This document shows positions 3,982-63,856 of a stretch of DNA of 64,000 bases, piece by piece. Origin of the DNA: Duncaniella sp. (GTDB taxonomy: Bacteria > Bacteroidota > Bacteroidia > Bacteroidales > Muribaculaceae); assembly GCA_029056055.1 (NCBI GenBank), contig JAIDCC010000095.1, positions 3,747-67,746 on the forward strand. Direction: 5' to 3'. The notes beneath the pieces were generated by a model. That model searched no databases, was not told where the DNA came from, and worked only from the letters and a program-made list of their open reading frames with translations. How positions within the stretch are numbered: the first letter of the stretch is position 1; every line of letters begins with the position of its first letter. A program made the translations under genes and the position numbers.

Positions 3982-4413
3982 ATGAAGAACTCAACGACAC
4001 ATATCGAAAGCCCCGCCGTGGGATGTATGCTCGGCAAAGCATATCAGACGCTCCTCAGCCGTCTGGCCGACGCTCTGGCCCAAGCCGGGCTCGACATCAC
4101 GACCACGGAATACCTCGTGCTCCGCGCGCTCTATTCGGCCGACGGTCTGCAACAATGCGAAATCGCCGGACTGACCGGCAAAGATAAGGCTTCGATATGC
4201 CGCTGCGTGGCCGGCCTTGCAAAGAAGGGACTCGTGACGACAGAGACGGTCAGTCACAAATGCCTGCGGGTCTACCTTTCCGACGAGGCCAAGGCCATCG
4301 AGGCAAGAGTGCTCGAGGTGGCCGCCGCACGCCACAACGCGCTGCTCGCCATCTCTTCGCCGCGAGAGGTTGAGGTCTTCGCCAACGTACTTGAAAAAAT
4401 CATAAGTAAGTGA
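3982..4413 (+). CDS. MarR-family transcriptional regulator
   Basis: 143 aa from the ATG at 3982 (the track ORF starts at a TTG at 3943). It shows a winged-helix pattern: TEYLVLRALY...QCEIAGLTGKDKASICRCVAGLAKKGLV. Its TGA stop lies inside the terminal repeat of the interspersed element. Confidence 0.8.
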   Translation: MKNSTTHIESPAVGCMLGKAYQTLLSRLADALAQAGLDITTTEYLVLRALYSADGLQQCEIAGLTGKDKASICRCVAGLAKKGLVTTETVSHKCLRVYLSDEAKAIEARVLEVAAARHNALLAISSPREVEVFANVLEKIISK

Positions 4414-4587
4414 GAAAAATAAATGAACAGATAAAAGGAAGTTATTTTTGAGATGATTTGAGATTTGAGTGAAGAAGCATAGCGAGCTATGCGCCTGAAC
4501 GAAAGGCTCAAAGCATCCAAAAAGAACGAGTTTTACTGTTCAAGAATTTTTTCTTACATATATCGTTTTATTTTTAGAACTTACTTA
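4403..4587. repeat. ~185-bp nested-palindromic interspersed repeat (MITE-like), copy 1
   Basis: Termini TAAGTAAGTGAGAAAAATAAA ... TTTATTTTTAGAACTTACTTA form an 18/21 inverted repeat. The central hairpin is GCATAG-CGAG-CTATGC. The element is near-identical to copies at 24539, 37265, 42933 and 54525. Confidence 0.9.
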
Positions 4588-4620
4588 CTCAATCATAATT
4601 TAATAGAAAGGAAAAACACA

Positions 4621-5340
4621 ATGATTACTCTTACCATCTGGAGCGATTTCGCCTGTCCATATTGCTACATCGGTGAAACGAGATTGCAGAACGCTATCGA
4701 ACAACTCGGTTTGCAAGATGATGTCACCGTAGATTTCCGAGCTTTCGAGCTCGACCCGACCACCCCGAAGGAGGTAGTCTCGTCGACCCCCGAACGATTC
4801 GCCAAGAAGTATCGTCTTTCGCTCGAAGGCGCCGAGCAGCAGATTGAGCAAATCTCGGCTCTCGGGCGCGAACTCGGCATCGACTTCAGATATGCCACGA
4901 CGCAGTATTCAAACACCCGCGACGCCCACCGGCTGATGAAACTCGCCGAGGCCAAGTATGACCGCGCCACCGTAGGGCGTCTGAACGAGGCTCTGTTCAA
5001 GGCCTACTTCGTTGAAAATCTCGTGCTCGCCGACCATGGCGTGCTGCTCGCCAAGGCTCTCGAAGCGGGCATGAACGAGGAGGAGGTCAAGGCCGTGCTT
5101 GAGTCTGACAAATATGACGACGAAGTGCGTTTCGACGAGCGTGAGGCCGCGATGCGTGGCGTGCATGGTGTGCCCTACATAGTGTTCAACGGCGAGTTTG
5201 CCGTGCCGGGCGCAATGTCGACCGAAGGTTTCAAGTCGGCTCTCGAACGCGAACTGCGCCGTCAGGGCACGGAGGCCGACATAAAGCCCGAAGGCGAACG
5301 CCCCCATCAGTGCGGACCCGACGGTTGTCAATTGCTGTAA
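4621..5340 (+). CDS. DsbA/FrnE-family thiol oxidoreductase
   Basis: Starts MITLTIWSDFACPYCYIGE, which contains a CxxC thioredoxin-fold motif. The upstream part of the track ORF (4489-4620) is repeat-derived. Confidence 0.8.
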   Translation: MITLTIWSDFACPYCYIGETRLQNAIEQLGLQDDVTVDFRAFELDPTTPKEVVSSTPERFAKKYRLSLEGAEQQIEQISALGRELGIDFRYATTQYSNTRDAHRLMKLAEAKYDRATVGRLNEALFKAYFVENLVLADHGVLLAKALEAGMNEEEVKAVLESDKYDDEVRFDEREAAMRGVHGVPYIVFNGEFAVPGAMSTEGFKSALERELRRQGTEADIKPEGERPHQCGPDGCQLL

Positions 5341-5402
5341 AACACTAAATCATGAGGTTTCCGCGCTGCCGCGGAGACCTCTTTCATCTGATACTCTCTC
5401 TC

Positions 5403-6029
5403 ATGATTAAGCAAATGCAGGTGGTAGGCGTATTCGCCGAAAACACCTATTTCTATATCGACGACCATTCAAAGGCCGGTTTTATCATCGACCCCGGCGC
5501 TCAGGCGGGGCTAATCTACGACGCCGTAAAGAGCAACGGCTGGAAGATAGAACGCATCCTGCTGACCCACGGACATTTCGACCACTTCGGAGCCGCAGAG
5601 GTACTTCGCGAGCGTCTTCACGCCCCGATTTTCGTCTACGAGGAGGAAGCCCCCTACCTCAACGACCCCTACCTGAATCTCAGCGAAAACTCGGGACACC
5701 CCATCACCGTATCCCACTACGAGGAGCTTCACGACGGCGAGACCATCCGCCTCAGGGAAAACAACGGGTTCTACCTGAAAGTGATTCACACCCCGGGGCA
5801 TACGCCCGGCTCGGTGACCTACTATTCGCCTGAAGAAGAGGCCGCTTTCGTGGGCGACCTGCTCTATCAGCACGGCCCCGGCCTGACCAACTTCCCCGGG
5901 GGCGACCGCCGCGTACTCGAAGACTCGATAGTCAACAAAATCCTTACCCTCCCCGACCGCACCCTCCTGCTTTCGGGCCACTCCTCGCCCATCACCGTAG
6001 CCGAAGAGCGCCGCCTGCTGTTGGGATGA
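5403..6029 (+). CDS. MBL-fold metallo-hydrolase (glyoxalase II-like)
   Basis: HxHxDH motif LTHGHFDHFG, and a later HTPGHTPG block. About 208 aa from the ATG at 5403. Confidence 0.8.
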   Translation: MIKQMQVVGVFAENTYFYIDDHSKAGFIIDPGAQAGLIYDAVKSNGWKIERILLTHGHFDHFGAAEVLRERLHAPIFVYEEEAPYLNDPYLNLSENSGHPITVSHYEELHDGETIRLRENNGFYLKVIHTPGHTPGSVTYYSPEEEAAFVGDLLYQHGPGLTNFPGGDRRVLEDSIVNKILTLPDRTLLLSGHSSPITVAEERRLLLG

Positions 6030-7133: not shown

Positions 7134-9527
7134 TCAGCGGATTACGATTTTGGCTGTCGTGGCGGGGGTGCGCACTATGTAGAGTCCCGCGGGGAGGGTC
7201 GGAAGCTCTGCGGCGAGGCCTGTGGCAAGAAGTCTGCCGTCGGGGGTGAAGACCTCCACGCGGCCATCGGCAACGATTCTTCCGTCGGCAACGCTTATTG
7301 CTTCGGCCTCCGTCTCGCCCTGCACCGCGTCGATGGCCGAAATCTGTCCGTCGCCCATGATGATGTAATGCTTCCAAGCCTCGTCGGCCTGGTAGAATTT
7401 CACATAGGAGGGCATCGTATGCACCTTCACGCGCGGCGGGAATGTGCAGAGGTCGGGATTGTTGTCGTCCCACACGATGGCCGGGGGCTCGATGGTCAGC
7501 GCCCACACGTCGGTGAGCTGTTCGCAGCGGGCGAACGCGCCTGCGTCTATGGTTTTGAGCGTGGCGGGCAGACGCAGTTTCTCAAACCGTGTTCCGGCAA
7601 ATGCCTCCCGTCCTACGTAGGCGAGTTTGTCGCCCCACGCGAAAGTGTCGAGATTCGTGCCCGAGAAGGCCTCATCCTCTATCGTGGTGAGGTTGGGCCA
7701 CGTGATGTCAAGCTTTTCAAGCGGCGCGTTCTTGAACGCTCGCTCTCTGATGGTGCTCACCTTACATTCGAAAGGTGTGCCGTCGGCACTCGCGATGCTC
7801 TTCAGTGACGAGTCTTCAAATGTTCCTTCATGAAGATAATCACAATTTCGTTTATCGGTGGTCAGGAAGCTGGGTTCCGTCTCAATTCCGGTTATTCCGG
7901 ATTTCTTCAAAGCCTCTGCGCCACAGATGTAGAGTTTGCCTGCAATATGCTCCAACAGAGGTGTGTCTCTCAACCCGCCTTCAAATACGTACGTCCAAAC
8001 CTTGTTTTTGATTTCCTTAAGGCCGCTGTTTTTGAAAGCATCAGCGTAGACATATATTAGGTTGGCGCTGATGCTCTCTATGGCCGTTTCCTCGAACGCT
8101 CCTTCTTCAAACAATACACTCGCATAGCCACCCGGCACGGTGGTGATGGTTTTGACTGCTTCTTTACCCGGGAAACTGTTTTTGGTAAACATCACGCTCA
8201 TGTAGGAATCGGGCGCGTCGTAGAAGAACGTGAGACCGCCGCCGGTATCGAAATTCAATGGCCCGCGCGCGATTTCTATCGTGGTGTCGTCGGCGTTGCG
8301 GGGTGTGAAACCCAAAATTTCGTAGCCGCTGAAGTCCTCTGATTCAGACTTGACTTTATCCTTGCTATAGATTACTCCCCTCCATTCCCACGAGCCGTCG
8401 GCGCGACGCGACGGGAGCGGCTGAATGTCGTAGTTGGCCCAGATTTTCGTGCCGTTGGCGTCGGTGAAATTCTTGTAGACTCCGACGGCATACGAGGGCA
8501 CGTAGATGCTCACTCCGGCTGGAAACGAGCAACGCGAGGGATTGGCGGCGTCCCACACGATGGCCGGTGGTTCGGGGTTGGAGATGTAGACGGCTGTAAG
8601 CCTGTCGCACCCCGCAAATGCGCCCTCGCCTATCGACTCGATGACCGGGGGCAGAAAGACTTCCTCCAGACGAGTACCGCGGAAGGCTCTCGCGCCTATG
8701 GTGCTAAGATTCGCCGACCATAATAATTCTTCAAGCGGCGTGCCGTCGAAGGCCTCTTCTTCAACGGTGACAGCCGACGAAAAGGGCAGCGTGGTGACCT
8801 TCGAATTCTTAAAACTGCGCTTCCCGAAATGAGTTATCTCCATAGTATTGCTCAAATTATACTCATAGGAAAAGGAGGTAAAATTTGAATTCTCAAACGC
8901 TCCCTCGGGAATAGTCTTCGAGATTAATTCGCTGATCCATACTCTCGTGACGGAAGACCCTTTGAATGCGTTTACACCCAATTCACTCACAGTGCCGAGA
9001 TATACACTCTCAAGGTTAGTGGTCCCCTCGGCAAAACTCTTGCCGACAGGCATTGTGACCCCGTTGGCCGTCCCTAAGTGAATTTTGCTGACATGACTAT
9101 TCATAAAAACACTGTCAGGAGTCTCAACATTCCGCCCATATGGTTCCCAATAAAAATTAAAGCATCCAAGTGACGATGCATTATAGAACGCTTTCGAGCC
9201 AAACCACCCTTTTGTATAGGCATTACTCGGATTAACGTCGGTGATAATATCATTATTGGCGAAAATCTCACGCGGCAGATACTTCTTCATTTCAGTGCCG
9301 GGATACTCTCCCCAGTTGTCGGGAGAATACTCTCGCAACACATAGGGTGTGATATACAAACTACGGTTTGGTATATCCGCCGTCAAAGTAGTTCCGACAA
9401 CAGTCCAATAATAAGAACCCACCTCATAAATCACATGGCGATATTCAATCGTAGAGGCACACCCGCTCATGGCCGCAACAAGCAGAAATATCCCGACGAT
9501 TATTCTGCGAAAGTGAATTGTTTTCAT
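7134..9527 (-). CDS. BspA-like leucine-rich-repeat surface protein with lipoprotein signal and T9SS C-terminal sorting domain
   Basis: 797 aa with a lipobox (LLVAAMSGCAS) and repeated blocks of the form xAFxxCxxLTxV. The C-terminus (VEVFTPDGRLLATG...LPAGLYIVRTPATTAKIVIR) looks like a Por secretion tail. Confidence 0.75.
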   Translation of the reverse strand: MKTIHFRRIIVGIFLLVAAMSGCASTIEYRHVIYEVGSYYWTVVGTTLTADIPNRSLYITPYVLREYSPDNWGEYPGTEMKKYLPREIFANNDIITDVNPSNAYTKGWFGSKAFYNASSLGCFNFYWEPYGRNVETPDSVFMNSHVSKIHLGTANGVTMPVGKSFAEGTTNLESVYLGTVSELGVNAFKGSSVTRVWISELISKTIPEGAFENSNFTSFSYEYNLSNTMEITHFGKRSFKNSKVTTLPFSSAVTVEEEAFDGTPLEELLWSANLSTIGARAFRGTRLEEVFLPPVIESIGEGAFAGCDRLTAVYISNPEPPAIVWDAANPSRCSFPAGVSIYVPSYAVGVYKNFTDANGTKIWANYDIQPLPSRRADGSWEWRGVIYSKDKVKSESEDFSGYEILGFTPRNADDTTIEIARGPLNFDTGGGLTFFYDAPDSYMSVMFTKNSFPGKEAVKTITTVPGGYASVLFEEGAFEETAIESISANLIYVYADAFKNSGLKEIKNKVWTYVFEGGLRDTPLLEHIAGKLYICGAEALKKSGITGIETEPSFLTTDKRNCDYLHEGTFEDSSLKSIASADGTPFECKVSTIRERAFKNAPLEKLDITWPNLTTIEDEAFSGTNLDTFAWGDKLAYVGREAFAGTRFEKLRLPATLKTIDAGAFARCEQLTDVWALTIEPPAIVWDDNNPDLCTFPPRVKVHTMPSYVKFYQADEAWKHYIIMGDGQISAIDAVQGETEAEAISVADGRIVADGRVEVFTPDGRLLATGLAAELPTLPAGLYIVRTPATTAKIVIR

Positions 9528-9530
9528 AAG

Positions 9531-11465
9531 CTAACCCAATTTAGTGAGAATCAAATCCCAATGGTTATTAAATGACAGGCCATATCGACCAGATTCCGAA
9601 ATCTTAACTTCAAATCGATTAATAAATGAAACCGATTTCAGTTCCTCTCCTACAAGGATACCACGTATAGAATCTGAACCGCCTGTAGTACTACTGTTTA
9701 CATCGGGGTTATAAAAACAATATCTGAGGATAATAAAACTACCTTCATCAATGTCCATTGTCATTTCTGACAACCAGTTTGTTAAAAGATGCAACCCTGA
9801 AAGATTAACGAACAGAGCTGGTTTACCCGTTTCAGCTTTTAGGCGAACTTGTCTTGGTAAAACAAGACAGGTGCTTTTATGCCTTTCTCCAGCTTTGTTT
9901 AGGTAAAGGGTATTATTAAGCGGCATTAAAGCTCCAAGCTCTATATGTGAATATGGATCTGTCGTAAGATAATATCCATCTGTGTAACGCACTTCTCTTT
10001 CCATATTGTACGGTTGAATAGAAGAGGTCATCACTTTCAAGTTCGATGAAGTGTATTGTCCATCGTAATTAAGTGGCAGAAAAGCCATTCTATCGAAATG
10101 GAAACGCGTAGCATCGTCCATGTCTGAGACCCAACCATTCACAATCACATGCGTACAATTTTCCGCCTTGAAATGGTTTGGTAAAAGACTTCCTTTAATA
10201 CTCATATTCACAGTGGCAACCTTCTTGAGATCCACCCATACAGCATCTGCATTATAGGGTTCCTTATCAAAAATCCCCGGAAGAGCTTCCATCATTCGAA
10301 GTGCTGTAAATTCTGAGGCATGTATTCCACGGAGATACAGCGGTATAGCACGGAGACCTTCGAAACCAATATTGGCAAATACATTTCCGTCTAATTTCCA
10401 TTCCATATCGGATGCATTCATTGAATGGTCTTCAATATAGATACCAAAACCACCCATGAGTCTGCCCCCGAGAATCAAATTCTCGTTGAAGTAACTTTTG
10501 ATACTACTATCGTCCGGATCATACAAATCAAAATAAAATCCATAATCAGCATCAATAATCTGAAACGAGAAACGAGTATATTGGACAGCTGCTAGATACT
10601 TTTTAGGATCTACAGATGCAGGGGGATTATAAATAACCGAAATACCTCTATAGAGATGTTGGAGATGACGAACAGTGATGTTGCTATTCTCGGTATAGCC
10701 TGAGAATTCAATACCTGTACCGAGGTATTGAAGTGTATAGCCCATAGTAGTAGAGCCCGCAGGCCGTTCTCCTCCTTTCAATCTATCAACATTAAGATTT
10801 ACAGACTGACATTTAATCTTGATAAGTGCGAAATTTGTATTTGAATCAGCAGATGAAATACAGCCAGGTGAGGTAAATCTTTGAAGAGAAAAGGTATGAA
10901 GCTCAACAGAACACTGTGTTTGCGTGGAGGTAGGCGAACTAAAAGAGAAACTATTATTAGGAAAGAAATATGCATTACATAATTCAATTGATGCCGTAAG
11001 ATGATATAATCGGTGCTGAAGAACTACTTCTGGGGCCGACCCATCATAATTGACGGAATCACCAACAGGTTCATCAGTTGAAGCAGCTGCGCACGCTAAT
11101 GCTTTATTAATATGAAAGTGATCCGAAGATGTCTTTGATTTTAAATCCGGATCATTAAACCACTCACTTTGTACTTGAGTGTTCCCACAGCCCCTGAAGT
11201 AGACATTCTTTCCCAAAATCCAAGTAGAGAGTGCTATAATTTGAGAACCTTGAAGATTCAGCACCACGTTGGTATTACACACAATGCGTCCTTCGCCTCG
11301 GAACTCAATAATACTATTCTCTGGAAAGGTGATCGATATGAATTTAGACGTCGGTACAGATTGAGTGTCAATTTCAATAATTGAGTCTATGATGTAACGA
11401 CCTTCGCTATCAGCTTCAATTACAGCATGATTCGTGAATTTCTTTTTTGTGAGTATTGTAGCCAT
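9531..11465 (-). CDS. Hypothetical 644-aa protein with no signal peptide and possible parallel beta-helix repeats; low-GC orphan
   Basis: A long uninterrupted ORF in an AT-rich tract. Its stop is 3 nt before the ATG of the LRR gene. I do not recognise the family; repetitive blocks like NITVRHL/GISVIY and GIYIEDHS hint at a beta-helix. Confidence 0.6.
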   Translation of the reverse strand: MATILTKKKFTNHAVIEADSEGRYIIDSIIEIDTQSVPTSKFISITFPENSIIEFRGEGRIVCNTNVVLNLQGSQIIALSTWILGKNVYFRGCGNTQVQSEWFNDPDLKSKTSSDHFHINKALACAAASTDEPVGDSVNYDGSAPEVVLQHRLYHLTASIELCNAYFFPNNSFSFSSPTSTQTQCSVELHTFSLQRFTSPGCISSADSNTNFALIKIKCQSVNLNVDRLKGGERPAGSTTMGYTLQYLGTGIEFSGYTENSNITVRHLQHLYRGISVIYNPPASVDPKKYLAAVQYTRFSFQIIDADYGFYFDLYDPDDSSIKSYFNENLILGGRLMGGFGIYIEDHSMNASDMEWKLDGNVFANIGFEGLRAIPLYLRGIHASEFTALRMMEALPGIFDKEPYNADAVWVDLKKVATVNMSIKGSLLPNHFKAENCTHVIVNGWVSDMDDATRFHFDRMAFLPLNYDGQYTSSNLKVMTSSIQPYNMEREVRYTDGYYLTTDPYSHIELGALMPLNNTLYLNKAGERHKSTCLVLPRQVRLKAETGKPALFVNLSGLHLLTNWLSEMTMDIDEGSFIILRYCFYNPDVNSSTTGGSDSIRGILVGEELKSVSFINRFEVKISESGRYGLSFNNHWDLILTKLG

Positions 11466-11897: not shown

Positions 11898-14396
11898 TCA
11901 GCTGATGAAGCGGCCGGTGATGCTTTCGGGGGTGGCGGCCACTTGGGCCGGGGTGCCTGCGGCGACCACGCGGCCGCCGTCCTGCCCTCCTCCGGGACCC
12001 ATGTCGATGATGTAGTCGGCGTTGCGTATCACGTCGAGGTCGTGCTCTATCACTATGACAGTCGCGCCGAGGTCGATGAGGCGCTGAAACACTTCGATGA
12101 GTTTGATGACGTCGAGGGGGTGGAGGCCGATGGTGGGTTCGTCGAACACAAAAAGCGTGTCGCCCTGCTCGCGGCCCATCTCGGTGGCGAGTTTGAGGCG
12201 CTGCGCTTCGCCGCCCGACAAACTCGGAGTGGCTTCGCCGAGGGTGAGGTAGCCGAGACCGAGGTCGTTGAGCGTGGTGAGCCGCGACGCCACGGTCTTG
12301 TGGGCGGCACATTCCTCGATGGCCTGCTCCACGTCGTCGTCCATCAGCTCGGGCAGCGAGACCTTGCGCCCCGAAGCGCCTTCGATTTTCACCGTCCACG
12401 CCTTGCGGCTGTAGCGCGAACCTTTACATTCTGGGCAAGGGATGTCGACGTCGGGCAGGAACTGCACGTCGAGGCTCACCGTGCCCGTGCCGTCGCAGAT
12501 GGGGCAACGCAGCGAGCCGGTGTTGTAGGAGAAATCGCCCGCTTTCAGGCTCTCGGCCTTGGCATCTTTGGAGCGACCGAAAATCTTGCGCAATTCGTCG
12601 TGGATGTTGGCGTAGGTGGCCACCGTTGAGCGCACGTTAGCGCCGATGGGGGTCGAGTCGATGAGTTTGACGTTGCGTATGCCGGGTGCGTTGACGGTTT
12701 TGACGTGCTCTGGCAGCGGCGTCGAGCCTGTGGCGGCGGTCAGTCCGGGCACGAGGCTTTCGAGCACCATGGTGGTTTTGCCCGAACCGGAGACCCCGGT
12801 CACAACTGTGAGCCGTCCTTTTGGGATAGCTATTTCGAGAGGGCGCACGGTGTGGATTTGCGAGGTGGTCATCTCGATGCTCCCTTCGTCAAACATTTCA
12901 AACATTTCGCCGGGCGCGACGACAGGGCGGAGGCGGCGCTCCCCTTTGCCCGAGAGGAAGGGGCCGATTTTCGAGTCGGGGTTGTTTTCGATTTGGGCGA
13001 TTGTGCCTTCGGCTATGATGCGGCCGCCGTTGGCGCCCGCGCCGGGACCGAGTTCCACCATCCAGTCGGCATCGCGGAGTATCTGCGTGTCGTGGTCTAC
13101 GAGCACTATCGAGTTGCCGTCGGCCATGAGGTCGTGCATCACTCCTTTCAAGCCGTTGATGTTGGCCGGGTGCAGGCCAATCGAGGGTTCGTCGAGCACG
13201 TAGAGAATGCCGGTGGTGCGGTTGCGCACCACGCGCGCCAACTGCATGCGCTGGCGCTCGCCTGTGGAGAGTGTGGCCGAGGCGCGGTCGAGACTGAGGT
13301 AGCCGAGACCGAGGTCTACGAGCCTGCGCGCCGTCAGCAGAAACGATTCGCCTATGTTTGCGGCCATCTGCCTCATCTCTTCGGGCAGCGTGGCGGGAAC
13401 GTTTTTCACCCATTCGATAGCGTCGGCGAGAGTCTTGGCCGTGGCTGTGTCGAGCCCGATGCCGTCGATGCGCGGGGCGCGTGCGGCTTCCGACAGGCGC
13501 GTGCCGTGGCAGCAGGGACACACGTCGCTCTTAAGAAATTTCTCTACTCGCTTCATGCCCTTCTCGTCGGTCACTTTGGCGAGGGCGTTCTCTACGGTGT
13601 AGACGGCATTGTAGTAGGTGAAGTCAAGCTCGGCCATGGTGTCGGTCTTCTTGGCTTTGTAGAGAATCTGTTTTTTCACGGCCGGCCCGTTGAACACTAT
13701 GTCGCGCTCCTCGGGTGTGAGTTGGTTGAATGGCACGTCGGTTCTCACTCCCATGGCGCGGCAGACATCGGTCATCAGCGACCACATGAGTGTCTTCCAG
13801 GGCACGACGGCGCCGTCGTCGATTGACAGCGTTTCGTCGGGCACGAGTGTCGAGCGGTCTACGGTCATCACCACACCCGTGCCGCCGCATTTCTCACACG
13901 CTCCGGTGCTGTTGAAAGCGAGCTCCTCGGCGCCCGGTCCGAAGAAATGTGTGCCGCAGTTGCCGCACACCAGCTCCTTCTCGGCGGCCACGTCGAGGGT
14001 GGGCGCGTGATAGGTGCCGCAGTGCGGGCAGCGGTGCGATGCCAGACGCGAGAACATCAGGCGCAGGCTGTTGAGCAGTTCGGTGCCGGTGCCGAACGTG
14101 CTTCTCACGCCCGGCACTCCCGGGCGCTGGTGGAGCGCGACGGCGGCGGGCACGTGGAGGATTTCGTCTACATCGGCTCGCGCCGTCTGCGAAATGCGGC
14201 GGCGGGTGTAGGTCGACAAGGCTTCGAGGTATCTCCGCGACCCTTCGGCGTAGAGCACTCCCAAGGCGAGCGACGATTTGCCCGACCCCGACACGCCGGC
14301 CACACCGACAATGCGGCCGAGCGGGATGTCGACGTTGACGTTCTTGAGGTTGTGCACTCTCGCGCCGCGTATTTCTATCTTTTCGCTTTCTTTCAT
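11898..14396 (-). CDS. uvrA: UvrA-family ABC ATPase, short paralogue (832 aa)
   Basis: UvrA-like N-terminus (IEIRGARVHNLKNVNVDIPLGRIVGVAGVSGSGKSSLA), two ABC modules, and Zn-finger CxxC pairs. It is about 100 aa shorter than canonical UvrA. Confidence 0.85.
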   Translation of the reverse strand: MKESEKIEIRGARVHNLKNVNVDIPLGRIVGVAGVSGSGKSSLALGVLYAEGSRRYLEALSTYTRRRISQTARADVDEILHVPAAVALHQRPGVPGVRSTFGTGTELLNSLRLMFSRLASHRCPHCGTYHAPTLDVAAEKELVCGNCGTHFFGPGAEELAFNSTGACEKCGGTGVVMTVDRSTLVPDETLSIDDGAVVPWKTLMWSLMTDVCRAMGVRTDVPFNQLTPEERDIVFNGPAVKKQILYKAKKTDTMAELDFTYYNAVYTVENALAKVTDEKGMKRVEKFLKSDVCPCCHGTRLSEAARAPRIDGIGLDTATAKTLADAIEWVKNVPATLPEEMRQMAANIGESFLLTARRLVDLGLGYLSLDRASATLSTGERQRMQLARVVRNRTTGILYVLDEPSIGLHPANINGLKGVMHDLMADGNSIVLVDHDTQILRDADWMVELGPGAGANGGRIIAEGTIAQIENNPDSKIGPFLSGKGERRLRPVVAPGEMFEMFDEGSIEMTTSQIHTVRPLEIAIPKGRLTVVTGVSGSGKTTMVLESLVPGLTAATGSTPLPEHVKTVNAPGIRNVKLIDSTPIGANVRSTVATYANIHDELRKIFGRSKDAKAESLKAGDFSYNTGSLRCPICDGTGTVSLDVQFLPDVDIPCPECKGSRYSRKAWTVKIEGASGRKVSLPELMDDDVEQAIEECAAHKTVASRLTTLNDLGLGYLTLGEATPSLSGGEAQRLKLATEMGREQGDTLFVFDEPTIGLHPLDVIKLIEVFQRLIDLGATVIVIEHDLDVIRNADYIIDMGPGGGQDGGRVVAAGTPAQVAATPESITGRFIS

Positions 14397-16514: not shown

Positions 16515-16640
16515 TATCCGGTCATTTTTCAGCTCCAACCCGTACATTGTGCAAATTTAATGCATTTTTCCGAAAAGCCGATAGACCGCATGAAAGAAAT
16601 TTATCGTACCTTTGCCGACAAATATTCACTCACGTTCGTT

Positions 16641-42888: not shown

Positions 42889-42896
42889 TAACTTTG
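42889..42896 (+). promoter_or_regulatory. -7 promoter box TAACTTTG, upstream of repeat copy 4 and the GH2 gene
   Basis: Exact TAnnTTTG in the extended context TTTTTGCTTAACTTTGCA shared with other promoters here. The next plus-strand ATG with a gene is 43128, so repeat copy 4 would sit in the leader. Confidence 0.45.
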
Positions 42897-42932
42897 CAGT
42901 TGGTCTCCACACAACGGATTTCGCCAATCTCT

Positions 42933-55697: not shown

Positions 55698-55741
55698 GAT
55701 GCGGGAAACAAGTGCTCCACCCGGGCCTTGCTTCCCGCATC
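55698..55741 (+). terminator. Hairpin after ddh (no clear U-tract)
   Basis: A 15-bp stem GATGCGGGAAACAAG / CTTGCTTCCCGCATC (one mismatch) with a 14-nt loop. Confidence 0.45.
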
Positions 55742-55811
55742 GTCTTACCCTGCGGTTTCGGCTCGCTTTTCCGTCAATCGCAACGCACTGTTTCACATTA
55801 ACTTGAGTCAC

Positions 55812-55933
55812 TTCAAAACAATTTACGCAGTGCATTGCGTATTTTTACGCAGCGGGCTGAGGAAAATGTTCTATGCATCCTCAGAACAATTTCCCGAGGT
55901 GCATGACTTTCAGGAATTTTTTGTAACTTTGCA
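55812..55933 (+). repeat. Left copy of the imperfect direct repeat bracketing the ATPase/nuclease cassette (includes a promoter)
   Basis: Blocks shared with 57800-57889: TTCAAA(A)CAATTTACGCAGTG, CTGAGGAA, CAATTTC..GG, GGAATTTTT(T/C)GTAACTTTGC. Confidence 0.7.
55924..55931 (+). promoter_or_regulatory. -7 promoter box TAACTTTG for the ATPase cassette
   Basis: Exact TAnnTTTG, 24 nt upstream of the ATG at 55955. Confidence 0.6.
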
Positions 55934-55954
55934 AAGGTTATAGAAATCATAATT

Positions 55955-57154
55955 ATGAAACATAAAACTCTTCATGTAGAGAATTTTGGTCCCGTCAGCA
56001 ATGCCACGGTAGAACTCCGCTCCATCAACATGTTGATAGGCGAACAATCTGTAGGCAAAAGCACACTGGCAAAGCTGATAACAATTTTCACCGATTACCT
56101 GAGCCTGTGCAAATTGATAATGGGTGGAGAGAGCATGTGGCACAATCTGCTGAAAGAGTATAACCTCGAAATCTATAAGGACGATGATTATTTCATTGCC
56201 TTTGATATGAGTGAGGATGACGGACGTTTTCATATTGAGTTCCGTCACCACGAAATTTCATATTATCTGACTGTGGGCGGAGAAACCATCACCACACCAG
56301 AGAGTATAGTTGACCATATTCTCAACCTGAGACTGGATAAAATCTACCATGCCGAAGAGGTCAGGAAAGCCATGCAAGGAGGTGAGAACAAGGCGATACT
56401 TGAAGTGCTGACTAACTCCATCTACATTCCCGCCGAGCGAATCATCTATTCTGTCCTGACCAACCTTATGCCGGCCTTGGCGTTGGCCAATTCTACTATT
56501 CCCAAGATTTTGTTGCGGTTTATGGTAGAACTCGGGAATGCCAAGTCGGAATTTCCCGCCTTTCACATTCAGATGCTCGACGTCACATTCCGACATGAGG
56601 CATCTGAAGACTCCATCCTCATCGGCCCTGACGACAGAAATATTCCGATGAATGCTGCGTCGTCAGGCATCCAGTCGCTTGTCCCGCTGCTGTTCGTGCT
56701 CCATTACGCCATAACCAAGCGTGAGTATTCCTCATATGTCATCGAAGAACCTGAGTGTAATCTGTTTCCCACCAAGCAGGTTGAACTTCTTCAGTATATC
56801 CTTAAAGCCGTCAAGCACCCCACGCGCACGTTGACCATCACCACGCATAGTCCCTACTTGCTGTCGGCGATGAACAACATGCTGTTTGCAGGAATGCTGA
56901 TAGAAAAATACGGTGAAGGAATCAAGCCATTCGTTGACAAAGTGATGCCCGAAGCACACAGCCTCAAGGCATCCGATTGCTCGGTCTATTCGTTGGGCGA
57001 AGAGATTAACGGAGGCGACTATTGCCGTTCGCTTATGGATGCCTCAACCGGAATGATTGATTTCAATTCTTTGGATGAGGTTTCCGAATTGTTAGCCGGT
57101 GAGTTTGAATCTCTTCAGGAAGCCGCCGCCGACTACATGCGCGAGAACCGATGA
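55955..57154 (+). CDS. ABC-type (AAA_15/AAA_21-like) ATPase with no fused effector domain
   Basis: 399 aa. Walker A IGEQSVGKSTLAK, Q-loop-like YIPAER, signature-like NAASSGIQSL, Walker B SSYVIEEPECNLFP, H-loop TITTHSPYLL. Low GC. Confidence 0.8.
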   Translation: MKHKTLHVENFGPVSNATVELRSINMLIGEQSVGKSTLAKLITIFTDYLSLCKLIMGGESMWHNLLKEYNLEIYKDDDYFIAFDMSEDDGRFHIEFRHHEISYYLTVGGETITTPESIVDHILNLRLDKIYHAEEVRKAMQGGENKAILEVLTNSIYIPAERIIYSVLTNLMPALALANSTIPKILLRFMVELGNAKSEFPAFHIQMLDVTFRHEASEDSILIGPDDRNIPMNAASSGIQSLVPLLFVLHYAITKREYSSYVIEEPECNLFPTKQVELLQYILKAVKHPTRTLTITTHSPYLLSAMNNMLFAGMLIEKYGEGIKPFVDKVMPEAHSLKASDCSVYSLGEEINGGDYCRSLMDASTGMIDFNSLDEVSELLAGEFESLQEAAADYMRENR

Positions 57155-57167
57155 TTTCAAGCAAATT

Positions 57168-57767
57168 ATGATGAATTTCAATCCTATTAAACGGCTCAGG
57201 CTTAAAGCTGCCTATGAGGATGCGAAAGCGTTTGCCGACGTAGTCCGCGACGAGGATTTTCTCGTGGAATTGTTTGAATGGTCTGAACGGGGAACTATTT
57301 TCATCGTTGACGACGCTGAGGCAGGCTTTTCCCGATTTGTCACAGATACAAACGGGTTGGGATTCGACAAGGCCTTAAAGGTGGTCAACCGAGACCACAA
57401 AGACATGTTCCTTTGGCATATCGACGGTCTCATCTATAAGAAAGACAGCAAATGCGACTGCGCACTGCTGACGGATGAGAGCATTCGTTTTATCGAATTC
57501 AAGTCGAATGCCGCCAATAAGACGCGTGAGGCGATTATCGAGAATTACGATAAAGCCAAAAATCAACTGAAGCTCACCTTTGACGACGTCAACGAAAGGT
57601 GTCGGAAGGTCGGCATAGATTTGAAAACCAGTGCCCGACCGAGAGCATACGCAGTCTTCAACCGCACGGTGCCTTCTCTCAATGCCTATCAGAAGAAACT
57701 TGCTGCGCAGTTTCTGTTAGAGACAGACGGCGTTTCGCTTGAATTTAAGAACGAAACCATAATCTGA
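57168..57767 (+). CDS. Hypothetical 199-aa protein with a PD-(D/E)xK-like nuclease motif
   Basis: Starts MMNFNPIKR, 13 nt after the ATPase stop (the track ORF starts at a GTG at 57099 inside the ATPase gene). The candidate core is FLWHIDGLIYKKDSKCDCALLTDESIRFIEFKSN (D ... D ... ExK). Family not recognised. Confidence 0.6.
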   Translation: MMNFNPIKRLRLKAAYEDAKAFADVVRDEDFLVELFEWSERGTIFIVDDAEAGFSRFVTDTNGLGFDKALKVVNRDHKDMFLWHIDGLIYKKDSKCDCALLTDESIRFIEFKSNAANKTREAIIENYDKAKNQLKLTFDDVNERCRKVGIDLKTSARPRAYAVFNRTVPSLNAYQKKLAAQFLLETDGVSLEFKNETII

Positions 57768-57799
57768 CTGCGCCCTCTCTCAAACCGCCTTGCGTTAAA

Positions 57800-57889
57800 T
57801 TCAAACAATTTACGCAGTGGACTGAGGAATGATGCTTGGCGCAAAGGTAAGCAAATTTTCGCAATTTCGGGAATTTTTCGTAACTTTGC
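57800..57889 (+). repeat. Right copy of the imperfect direct repeat bracketing the cassette (includes the PL11 promoter)
   Basis: See 55812-55933. It carries the TAACTTTG box at 57881-57888. Confidence 0.7.
57881..57888 (+). promoter_or_regulatory. -7 promoter box TAACTTTG for the PL11 gene
   Basis: Exact TAnnTTTG, 30 nt upstream of the GTG at 57918. Confidence 0.55.
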
Positions 57890-57917: not shown

Positions 57918-59756
57918 GTGAAATCTACTTTTCTAAGCATACTGACCGCCGGGCTGGCCTTCATGGCGTCGGCCGCTCCGAAAACCGAATTTCTCAACCG
58001 CGGCGTTGTGGCCCTTCCCACCGAGGAGGGCGTTTTCGTGTCGTGGCGCTCGCTCTCGCGTGATGGGGCCGACGCGTCTTTCGACGTCTACCGCAACGGC
58101 GTGAAAATCAATCTTACTTCCCTCTCAGGAGGCACGAACTACGTTGACCCGCAAGGACACCCGGGCGACACCTACGAGGTGCGCACCGCCGCGGGAGCCG
58201 GCGAGACAGGCAGCTGCGTGGCATGGGAGGCGCCTTACCTGAAAATCCATCTTGACCGTCCCGAGGGAGACACGCTGCCCGGACGCGAGGGAGAGCCTCG
58301 ACCCTTCACCTACTCGCCCAACGATATGTCTGTGGGCGATGTCGACGGTGACGGGGTCTACGAGCTCTTCGTGAAATGGGAACCTTCGAATGCTCACGAC
58401 CCTTCGCATCAGGGCTACACGGGCGAGACCATTTTCGACTGCTACCGACTCGACGGTACACGTTTGTGGCGCGTCAACCTCGGTCAAAACATCCGCTCCG
58501 GAGCCCACTACACCCAATTCGTGGTGGAAGACTTCGATGGCGACGGGTGTGCTGAAATGATTTGCAAGACAGCCCCCGGCACTATCGACGGAACCGGCAC
58601 ACCGGTGCTTCTCGGCAACGACCGCGCAGACGAAGACCATCGCGTCCACGACCGCGGCAAAGCGTTCGGCCACATCCGCGGGGGGAGCGAATACCTCACC
58701 GTGTTCAGCGGCAAGACGGGCAAGGCTCTGAGCACCATTCCCTACCGTCCCGCCTACTACGACGTCACCGAAGAAATCTGGGGCGACGACCACTGCAACC
58801 GCGCCGACCGCTATCTGGCCGGAGCCGCCTGCCTCGACGGCGTGCTACCCTCGGCCATAATGTGCCGCGGCTACTACTCCGGCTCGTTTGTGTGGGCCGT
58901 AGATTTCCGCGACGGCGAGCTGCGCGAAGTGTGGCTTCACAAATCCGACCGTCCCATGGAAGGACTCTGGGGCGAAGGCGCCCACTCGGTGGTGATGGGC
59001 GATGTCGACGGCGACGGCAAGGACGAAATCATGTACGGAGCTTCGGCTCTCGACCATGACGGCTCGCTGCTCTACCGCACCGGCGGCGGCCACGGCGACG
59101 CTCTCCATCTCGGCCAATTCCTCCCCGAACGTCCGGGGCTTCAGGTCTACATGCCCCACGAAGAGGAATATGCCCCCTACCCCTACGACTCGACCATGCG
59201 CGACGCTGCAACAGGCGAAATCATCTATTCGAAACCGCAGACAGGCACCGACGTGGGTCGCGGTCTCACGGCCAACATCACGCCTCTCTATCCCGGGCAT
59301 GAGTATTGGGCGTCTGACTCGCGCAAAATCTACAACCACGGTCGCCCCGTGGGCGAAGTCGAGGGACGCCTTCCCATCAATTTCCGCATCTACTGGGACG
59401 GCGACCTCTACGACGAACTGCTCGACGGATCTCAGATTACCAAACCTGACCCCGAGCTGACCCGCCTCGACACAATAGCCGACTTCCGTGCCTACGGCGA
59501 CATCCGCGCCTGCAACGGCACCAAAAACACCCCCTGCCTGCAAGCCGACATCCTCGGCGACTGGCGCGAAGAGGTAATCCTGCGCGACGCCTCAACCGAC
59601 AGCGACATCTACATCTTCACCACCACAATCCCCTCGGCTCACCGTCTGCCCTGCCTCATGGAAGACCACCAGTATCGTCTGGCCATCGTCTCGCAGAACA
59701 CCTGCTATAACCAACCCCCTCACCTCAGCTACGACCCCGCCGAATCTCAACGATGA
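57918..59756 (+). CDS. Rhamnogalacturonan lyase, polysaccharide lyase family 11 (YesW/YesX-like)
   Basis: 612 aa with a GTG start and signal peptide. DVDGDGVYELFVKWEPSNAHDPSHQGYTGETIFDCYRLDGTRLWRVNLGQNIRSGAHYTQFVVEDFDGDGCAEMICKTAPGT matches the beta-propeller core I remember for YesW. Confidence 0.8.
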   Translation: MKSTFLSILTAGLAFMASAAPKTEFLNRGVVALPTEEGVFVSWRSLSRDGADASFDVYRNGVKINLTSLSGGTNYVDPQGHPGDTYEVRTAAGAGETGSCVAWEAPYLKIHLDRPEGDTLPGREGEPRPFTYSPNDMSVGDVDGDGVYELFVKWEPSNAHDPSHQGYTGETIFDCYRLDGTRLWRVNLGQNIRSGAHYTQFVVEDFDGDGCAEMICKTAPGTIDGTGTPVLLGNDRADEDHRVHDRGKAFGHIRGGSEYLTVFSGKTGKALSTIPYRPAYYDVTEEIWGDDHCNRADRYLAGAACLDGVLPSAIMCRGYYSGSFVWAVDFRDGELREVWLHKSDRPMEGLWGEGAHSVVMGDVDGDGKDEIMYGASALDHDGSLLYRTGGGHGDALHLGQFLPERPGLQVYMPHEEEYAPYPYDSTMRDAATGEIIYSKPQTGTDVGRGLTANITPLYPGHEYWASDSRKIYNHGRPVGEVEGRLPINFRIYWDGDLYDELLDGSQITKPDPELTRLDTIADFRAYGDIRACNGTKNTPCLQADILGDWREEVILRDASTDSDIYIFTTTIPSAHRLPCLMEDHQYRLAIVSQNTCYNQPPHLSYDPAESQR

Positions 59757-63798: not shown

Positions 63799-63806
63799 TA
63801 ACTTTG
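63799..63806 (+). promoter_or_regulatory. -7 promoter box TAACTTTG
   Basis: TTTTTTTGTAACTTTGCA, 51 nt upstream of the ATG at 63857. Confidence 0.5.
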
Positions 63807-63856
63807 CAACAATATTATTGTTATCACATTTTCAACTACACAAAACTACTTTTCTG

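Follow-up and report, generated by a model that had tools for sequence, protein, structure and literature searches.

Two systems described by Payne et al. come closest to the gene pair considered here. The first, PDC-M29, belongs to a set of 145 'phage defence candidates' obtained through guilt-by-embedding in BREX, DISARM and type I restriction-modification (RM) systems, and corresponds to cassette CAS_00123 (FAM_00005>>FAM_02872), number 110 in the supplementary cassette table; the second, HEC-02, combines an ATP-binding cassette (ABC) ATPase with a NERD PD-(D/E)xK protein and protects against phages, both genes being needed (Payne et al. 2024, bioRxiv 10.1101/2024.01.29.577857). The pair itself, genes A and B, lies in a 64,000-nucleotide stretch of DNA from Duncaniella sp., a gut bacterium of the Muribaculaceae (GenBank assembly GCA_029056055.1, contig JAIDCC010000095.1, positions 3,747 to 67,746), which we refer to throughout as the window and which provides the coordinates given below unless another contig is named. 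Gene A (55955-57154, + strand) encodes a stand-alone ABC ATPase of 399 amino acids, and gene B (57168-57767, + strand) encodes a soluble protein of 199 amino acids without a Pfam family. We suggest, with a probability of roughly 0.6, that together they constitute a horizontally acquired operon belonging to a divergent Bacteroidales branch of PDC-M29, in which an ATPase sensor and a nuclease effector would act against phage.

Similarity to PDC-M29

Among the 106 matches of gene A to models in PADLOC-DB v2, the best was PDC-M29A (PDLC04562; E 1.3e-37, 128 bits), followed at a distance by models from other systems, namely AriA (2e-26), PtuA and GajA (both about 1e-11) and HEC-02A (4.2e-10). The AriA match occupies the same coordinates as the Pfam AAA_15 domain and so appears to be generic to ATPases of that type. 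Gene B matched the partner model, PDC-M29B (PDLC04563; E 1.3e-8, 33 bits), its residues 71-196 aligning with positions 43-160 of a profile of 164, and this model was also matched by 32 of 34 diverse members of the B family, the best at 1.1e-17. All of these matches were judged by E-value and bit score alone. Going by these profiles, the A-B pair belongs, as a divergent Bacteroidales representative, to a candidate that is already catalogued, and is no new kind of system. The initial annotation of this DNA had rightly recognised the architecture of an ATPase paired with a small effector; that architecture was, however, already on the candidate list. Its suggestion that the family might be undescribed has to be given up, given that the PDC-M29A and PDC-M29B models match and that a hit to a named system was a refutation that the annotation had itself listed.

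Structure and composition of the locus

The two genes are inserted downstream of ddh (DAPDH_C) and upstream of a gene for a PL11 rhamnogalacturonan lyase (RGI_lyase/RGL11_C). Gene B begins 13 nucleotides (nt) after the stop codon of gene A and runs in the same direction; gene callers choose its second ATG, which gives a protein of 198 amino acids. The composition of the pair (GC 0.47, and 0.57 at third codon positions, GC3) is distinct from that of pta, ackA, ddh, PL11 and SASA around it (GC 0.58-0.62, GC3 0.72-0.75), and only 4.8% of equal-sized windows within the 64 kb are equally GC-poor. The low-GC insert between the ddh terminator and PL11 that had been described for this locus is therefore real, down to the 24 G+C counted among the first 60 nt of gene A. 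The terminator is a likely one: an inverted repeat after the ddh stop codon (55698-55741, + strand), with 15-nt arms that are 93% complementary, is kept in conspecific contigs and delimits the inserted region on its upstream side. Neither Rfam families nor tRNA genes were found when the cassette region was scanned for them.

The ATPase

Gene A has the full set of ABC motifs first read from it (GEQSVGKST, YIPAER, ASSGIQS, YVIEEPE and TTHSP), and it belongs to the AAA_15/AAA_21 type of stand-alone ABC ATPases, with a Rad50/SMC-like head (Pfam AAA_15, 7.6e-26; AAA_21, 2.9e-11). In 50 homologues of A, the Walker A lysine K35, PAER159-162, the ABC signature SSGxQ236-240, the Walker B glutamates EE264-265 and the H-loop histidine H298 are invariant. 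The AlphaFold2 (AF2) model, with a mean predicted local distance difference test score (pLDDT) of 90, consists of an ABC head into which beta and helical segments are inserted and which continues into a helical/beta extension at its C-terminus; neither a coiled coil nor a fused nuclease domain is part of it, which bears out the earlier statement that neither a nuclease nor a Toprim domain is attached to the ATPase. When this model was compared with solved structures by Foldseek, the heads of Rad50 and SMC proteins were the best matches (E 5e-11, with a probability of 1.0 for Rad50), followed by the retron-Eco8 effector, GajA, PtuA and AriA. The template modelling (TM) scores of these matches are only 0.37-0.47, so no solved defence ATPase stands out as especially close to A.

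The small partner protein

Gene B carries the motifs HIDG, KCDCALL and IRFIEFK and has no hydrophobic segment, its maximum Kyte-Doolittle score over 19 residues being 0.45; together with the 13-nt spacing from gene A, these details of the initial annotation all proved correct. It has no match in Pfam or NCBIfam and no meaningful match in PHROG. A word-indexed search recovered 61 relatives, nearly all of about 198 amino acids and, where the source is named, from Bacteroidales only, and an exhaustive profile search enlarged the family to 355 representatives of clusters formed at 50% identity. Among these 355, the 150 with the best scores are all short, single-domain proteins, of about 180-220 amino acids where they are full-length. 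Down to 19% identity, residues D48, E110, K112 and Q133 are invariant across the family and D86 and D97 are nearly so, D97 being conserved in at least 90%.

The AF2 model of B is confident (pLDDT 92; predicted TM score 0.90), and the order of its secondary structure elements, as assigned by DSSP (beta80-84, beta98-101, beta106-112, alpha120-147, beta159-164), yields an alpha-beta-beta-beta-alpha-beta core in which D97 stands at the N-terminus of strand 2 and E110-x-K112 lies within strand 3. An aspartate at the start of beta2 combined with (D/E)xK in beta3 is the canonical PD-(D/E)xK arrangement, and an order of elements like that of this superfamily spans residues from about 76 to 199; the N-terminal 75 residues or so form a separate region, which holds the invariant D48. 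When the model was compared with the Protein Data Bank (PDB) by Foldseek, the highest probability was 0.77 (Nt.BspD6I), with TM-scores of 0.25-0.34, and the top matches, none of them significant, were mostly PD-(D/E)xK proteins: Mus81-Eme1, Nt.BspD6I, Can2, FokI, Shedu and Hef. Weak Pfam and PADLOC matches of B-family members lead to SduA_C, HSDR_N_2, PDDEXK_9, SfsA, HEC-02B and Cas4, with SduA_C giving the best Pfam score, a sub-threshold 1.2e-3. A PD-(D/E)xK nuclease fold is thus likely but unproven for B, since neither a structure nor a sequence match reaches statistical significance. The structural check proposed at the outset has been borne out as far as the order of elements in a confident model, and gave no significant fold match. 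The further claim that the effector resembles neither HNH nor Toprim proteins agrees with the lack of a Pfam match to either, and with a family-wide D...ExK pattern in the right secondary structure positions.

Several candidate relatives of B were considered and rejected. PDB sequence matches of the B profiles to AvrM and to the heptad repeat of the coronavirus spike protein are spurious and coiled-coil-like. When the B family was aligned by hhalign with a PDDEXK_3 protein encoded near one A-B pair, only the heptad around ExK aligned, and hhalign indicates no relationship of B with this protein, with a PDC-M31B-like partner or with the partner of a further ATPase at locus L141 (see below).

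Linkage, mobility and distribution of the pair

Wherever a related locus includes upstream DNA (58 of 58), the gene immediately before B is A, in the same orientation and some 2-67 nt away; the same order is seen with two far more distant members (20-25% identity to B), which overlap the AAA_15 ATPase genes in front of them by 4 nt. The two genes have also diverged together, the identities of A and B co-varying closely between loci (r=0.93, n=31). The pairs nonetheless move between loci, for they sit in 21 distinct and unrelated flanking contexts, for example following rpoBC, flanked by a GH81 gene and a GerE regulator, or inside capsule loci, and in nearly every context they are GC-poorer than their flanks. 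We surveyed the ddh locus in one representative genome per species, which returned 80 loci in related species; the closest ddh came from a Duncaniella/Sangeribacter-like representative at 92% identity. In none of the 80 do A, B or PL11 follow ddh, though pta-ackA-ddh is kept there.

Horizontal acquisition of the pair, as first proposed, is supported by its composition, which differs from that of its flanks, by its absence after ddh in these 80 species and by its presence in 21 unrelated contexts. Six conspecific contigs, identified by an A protein at 98% identity or an identical ddh protein, have the cassette at the same place, one of them being cut just inside A. Homologues of PL11 in other species (72-75% identity) occur in unrelated contexts and have no similar promoter region, and the repeat motifs that flank the cassette in the window (described below) occur at conspecific loci only. 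The initial annotation had proposed looking for an empty site with a single repeat copy at the ddh-PL11 junction; none was found among the 80 ddh loci, the six conspecific contigs, the loci of PL11 homologues or the results of a repeat-motif search, and this reflects the presence of the cassette in all six contigs and the location of PL11 homologues elsewhere. Homologues of B were not detected in IMG/VR, in 50,697 INPHARED phages or in 72,556 PLSDB plasmids.

Direct repeats and promoters

The imperfect direct repeats reported around the pair are genuine. An upstream copy (55784-55932, + strand) and a downstream copy (57771-57889, + strand) have three collinear blocks in common: a distal 18-mer, CAAACAATTTACGCAGTG, at 55815-55832 and 57802-57819; a block at 55844-55864 and 57809-57829; and a proximal 20-mer, GGAATTTTTnGTAACTTTGC, which is exact at 55913-55932 and 57870-57889. 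The distal (expected 0.01 times) and proximal blocks are found nowhere else in the window, and none of 116 pairs of 400-nt control segments, spaced likewise, matched at E<=1e-4. Taken as a whole, the two copies are no more than about 73% identical, and the upstream one contains an extra internal palindromic duplication of about 22 nt (hairpin at 55824-55841). In one conspecific contig (L151, 3808-4129), the intergenic region between ddh and A has a 19-nt insertion and several substitutions immediately behind block CTGAGGAAAAT of the upstream repeat, showing that this region continues to change.

Both copies contain a promoter element, with which the upstream one ends. The sequence TAnnTTTG is the -7 promoter box of Bacteroidota, and the box TAACTTTG occurs at 55924-55931, 23 nt upstream of the ATG of gene A, and again at 57881-57888, 29 nt upstream of a GTG start for PL11 (57918), such that the downstream copy is likely to be the promoter of PL11 and SASA. 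Two further promoters in the window resemble the proximal block at three mismatches, and the -7 box within that block is enriched throughout the window, so its similarity between the two copies is in part generic promoter consensus. To say that the cassette and PL11 share copies of one promoter is therefore a fair description, subject to this generic component and to the modest identity of the copies. A scan for sigma-70 promoters and terminators was uninformative on this Bacteroidota sequence.

Two observations concern the promoters and the start of PL11 more generally. The -7 box in the form TAnnTTTGC is present at 28 sites in the window against 5.0 expected (for example at 16607-16615, 42889-42897 and 63799-63807) and could be used to place promoters across it. 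Translation of PL11 from the GTG at 57918 (57918-57965) produces a plausible signal peptide, MKSTFLSILTAGLAFMASA; in the gene calls of related contigs the start is 15 codons further on, at the ATG at 57963.

Neighbours and repeats at other A-B loci

Across the 21 contexts, the commonest families among 143 neighbouring proteins are other AAA_15/AAA_21 ATPases and enzymes of capsule biosynthesis, and ThsB_TIR, SocA_Panacea, PDDEXK_3/9, DUF3990/DUF3791 and FRG are also frequent. At several loci a second PADLOC candidate stands in tandem with the pair: PDC-M31A/B directly downstream in L116 (2865-4712), PDC-S56 directly downstream in L140 (7822-9768), and in L105 a second, very divergent PDC-M29-like pair (7661-9619) whose partner gene is homologous to B (hhalign probability 97%). 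In L141 a PDC-M29A-like ATPase follows (4069-5527) with an unrelated partner of 194 amino acids. These tandem arrangements support a defence-island-like association of the A-B pair at loci other than the one in the window. Reverse transcriptase genes of the RVT_1 family are present near two A-B loci (L088, 15431-16606; L154, 898-2679), one of them following a DnaG-type primase gene, in a capsule locus with SocA_Panacea and PDDEXK_3 genes; they may be further defence or mobile elements.

Direct repeats immediately flank the pair in 5 of the 21 contexts, compared with 1 of 304 control segment pairs (0/116 and 1/188). They measure 117 nt at 94% identity in L105, 153 nt at 98.7% in L116, 31 and 21 nt in L140 and 18 nt in L096, beside the blocks of about 20-30 nt in the window; they are specific to each locus and do not represent one shared element. 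In L105 and L116 the repeat also precedes the next defence-candidate cassette. The repeats of L105 and of L115/L116 contain a hairpin, GTGTCAGGAACCTGTCCCTTGACAC / GGTGACACGAACCTGTCCCCTGTCACC, with a conserved loop, GAACCTGTCCC, and compensatory changes in its stem. Five copies of this hairpin lie between and around the two tandem ATPase-partner cassettes of L105 (4181-10110), and copies stand on both sides of the A-B pair in L116 (777-2835) and L115 (735-2790); it is absent from the window and has no match in Rfam. One speculative explanation for these observations, to which we attach little weight, is that the bracketing repeats are the footprint of integrase-free insertion and stacking of small 'solo' defence operons in Bacteroidales. 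Circularised cassettes might, for instance, be captured through a single (Campbell-type) crossover in a shared promoter, leader or hairpin sequence, with duplication of the target.

Other features of the window

The strongest low-GC island of the window lies at 7134-11465 on the - strand (GC 0.37-0.45) and encodes a BspA-type leucine-rich-repeat protein of 797 amino acids and a protein of 644 amino acids without a Pfam or PADLOC match. Beyond it, at 11898-14396 on the - strand, is a gene for an 832-amino-acid UvrA-like double ABC protein (ABC_tran, UvrA_DNA-bind), which matches the PADLOC models of the MADS system (mad3, 8.5e-65; mad8, 3.6e-29); these matches are probably due to generic ABC similarity in a UvrA paralogue.

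Proposed function and alternative explanations

In proposing how the pair would work, we rely on analogy with PARIS, Septu, Gabija/OLD and HEC-02, from which the sensing role of A and the effector role of B are both taken. A would be an ATP-binding ABC head of the Rad50/SMC/OLD type that dimerises or oligomerises and serves as infection sensor and regulator, and B would be a small Mg2+-dependent PD-(D/E)xK-type nuclease with D97, E110 and K112 as its catalytic residues. We infer a physical interaction between the two, through which A would keep B inactive, or else activate it, until a phage-derived trigger altered the nucleotide state of A. B would then cut nucleic acid, whether phage or host DNA or possibly tRNA or other RNA, so that infection would be aborted or the invader's nucleic acid degraded directly. 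Transcription of the operon would start at its own Bacteroidota -7 promoter, which precedes A; as B has no predicted terminator behind it, the transcript may continue into PL11, which keeps its own copy of the promoter region.

A number of results weigh against this interpretation. The match to PDC-M29 is distant, B scoring no higher than 33 bits and A aligning in three separate stretches, which is why we regard the Bacteroidales clade of ~198-amino-acid B proteins as a divergent branch. The 145 candidates are described as untested by their source (Payne et al. 2024, bioRxiv 10.1101/2024.01.29.577857), and in the literature searched neither a mention of PDC-M29 nor a validated equivalent was found. 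The predicted fold of B has no significant match by Foldseek in either the PDB (best E 0.07, Mus81) or BFVD (best E 0.017), and profile searches of PDB sequences with the B family returned nothing meaningful. In the window the pair is 'solo' amid housekeeping and pectin-degradation genes (pta, ackA, ddh, PL11, SASA), with no defence island and no RM or BREX system around it, and every conspecific contig recovered has the cassette, no presence/absence polymorphism being seen within the species. Even so, an ATPase-plus-effector defence system is the best available reading.

The results for the fold of B bear directly on one alternative, that B is not a nuclease but an inert restriction-endonuclease-like or novel-fold adaptor, which binds nucleic acid or a phage protein and leaves the output to A or to a recruited host factor. 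This would accommodate the lack of a significant structure or sequence match to any characterised nuclease, the low Foldseek TM-scores (0.25-0.34) and the separate N-terminal region of about 75 residues with its invariant D48. It is harder to reconcile with the (near-)invariance of D97, E110, K112 and Q133 down to 19% identity, a pattern that would be expected of catalytic residues, with the canonical positions of the first three in beta2 and beta3 of the AF2 model, or with sub-threshold matches that fall time and again in PD-(D/E)xK families and never in another fold. We consider an adaptor of this kind improbable.

A similarly small chance attaches to the view that A and B are a toxin-antitoxin or addiction module, with B a toxin that A neutralises in an ATP-dependent manner, which exists for its own maintenance or stabilises the DNA that carries it. 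The pair has the appearance of such a selfish element in being a compact operon of two genes that changes locus without an accompanying integrase, and in occurring in every conspecific contig sampled; its recurrent neighbours include SocA_Panacea antitoxins and DUF3990/DUF3791 pairs, and Pfam labels AAA_21 a 'putative AbiEii toxin' domain. However, an addiction module of mobile elements should be enriched on such elements, and no homologue of B was found on the 72,556 plasmids, the 50,697 phages or the IMG/VR contigs that were searched; moreover, the pairs of ABC ATPase and effector put to the test, PARIS, Septu and HEC-02, are defence systems, though toxin-antitoxin-like in their logic. The two readings are compatible with one another.

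A native DNA repair pair similar to SbcCD/Mre11-Rad50 is disfavoured and very unlikely, since the closeness of A to Rad50 and SMC heads and the combination of an ATPase with a putative nuclease are set against the lack of a coiled coil or zinc hook in the 399 amino acids of A, the foreign composition of the pair, its absence at the ddh locus in 80 related species, its patchy distribution over 21 unrelated contexts and the other defence candidates among its neighbours.

Muribaculaceae and other Bacteroidales are dominant in the gut, and their repertoire of phage defences has mostly been deduced from models of Proteobacteria and Firmicutes. If the pair were active, it would give PDC-M29 an experimental grounding, and would do so in Muribaculaceae and Bacteroidales; the B family, with its 355 representatives and no Pfam entry, would become a newly defined effector family for which D97, E110 and K112 are clear targets of mutagenesis.

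Comparison with known systems

The architecture of the pair can be set beside those of several characterised systems. Lamassu consists of LmuB, an SMC ATPase with a long coiled coil, an LmuA effector and LmuC where the window has two genes; the model of A lacks a long coiled coil of the LmuB type, and LmuB is outside the top PADLOC matches. Gabija and OLD proteins belong to the same ABC ATPase clade, with GajA a structural neighbour of A and a PADLOC match at about 1e-11, but A is a pure ABC head of 399 amino acids without the fused Toprim domain of Gabija and class 2 OLD proteins, and no GajB-like helicase gene is nearby. The ATPase of Septu is of that clade too, PtuA being a structural neighbour of A with a PADLOC match of the same order (about 1e-11), but B has no HNH motif or Pfam match of that kind, the sole such match being to PADLOC 'HNH_I-A' at E 0.0077.

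PARIS is similar in placing a stand-alone AAA_15 ATPase of comparable size upstream of a separate effector, and AriA is both a structural neighbour of A (8ux9_B, E 6.6e-8) and a weak sequence match in the PDB; B differs from the PARIS effector in having no match to Toprim or DUF4435 in Pfam or PADLOC. HEC-02 is the closest experimentally supported analogue for the way in which the pair may work; it too joins an ABC ATPase to a separate small protein of the PD-(D/E)xK superfamily with a (D/E/Q)xK motif. Yet A matches HEC-02A at only 4.2e-10, as against 1.3e-37 for PDC-M29A, and B itself has no HEC-02B match and no NERD match in Pfam, HEC-02B being matched by only 3 of 34 distant members of the B family, at 3e-4.

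It is PDC-M29 whose two genes the window pair reproduces, first one for an ABC ATPase and then one for a small protein without annotation, adjacent and co-directional. The difference lies in the setting, because PDC-M29 was defined from instances inside BREX, DISARM or type I RM systems, whereas the window pair stands alone between ddh and a pectin lyase gene; such embedding was, however, the criterion by which PDC-M29 was discovered and is no requirement of membership.

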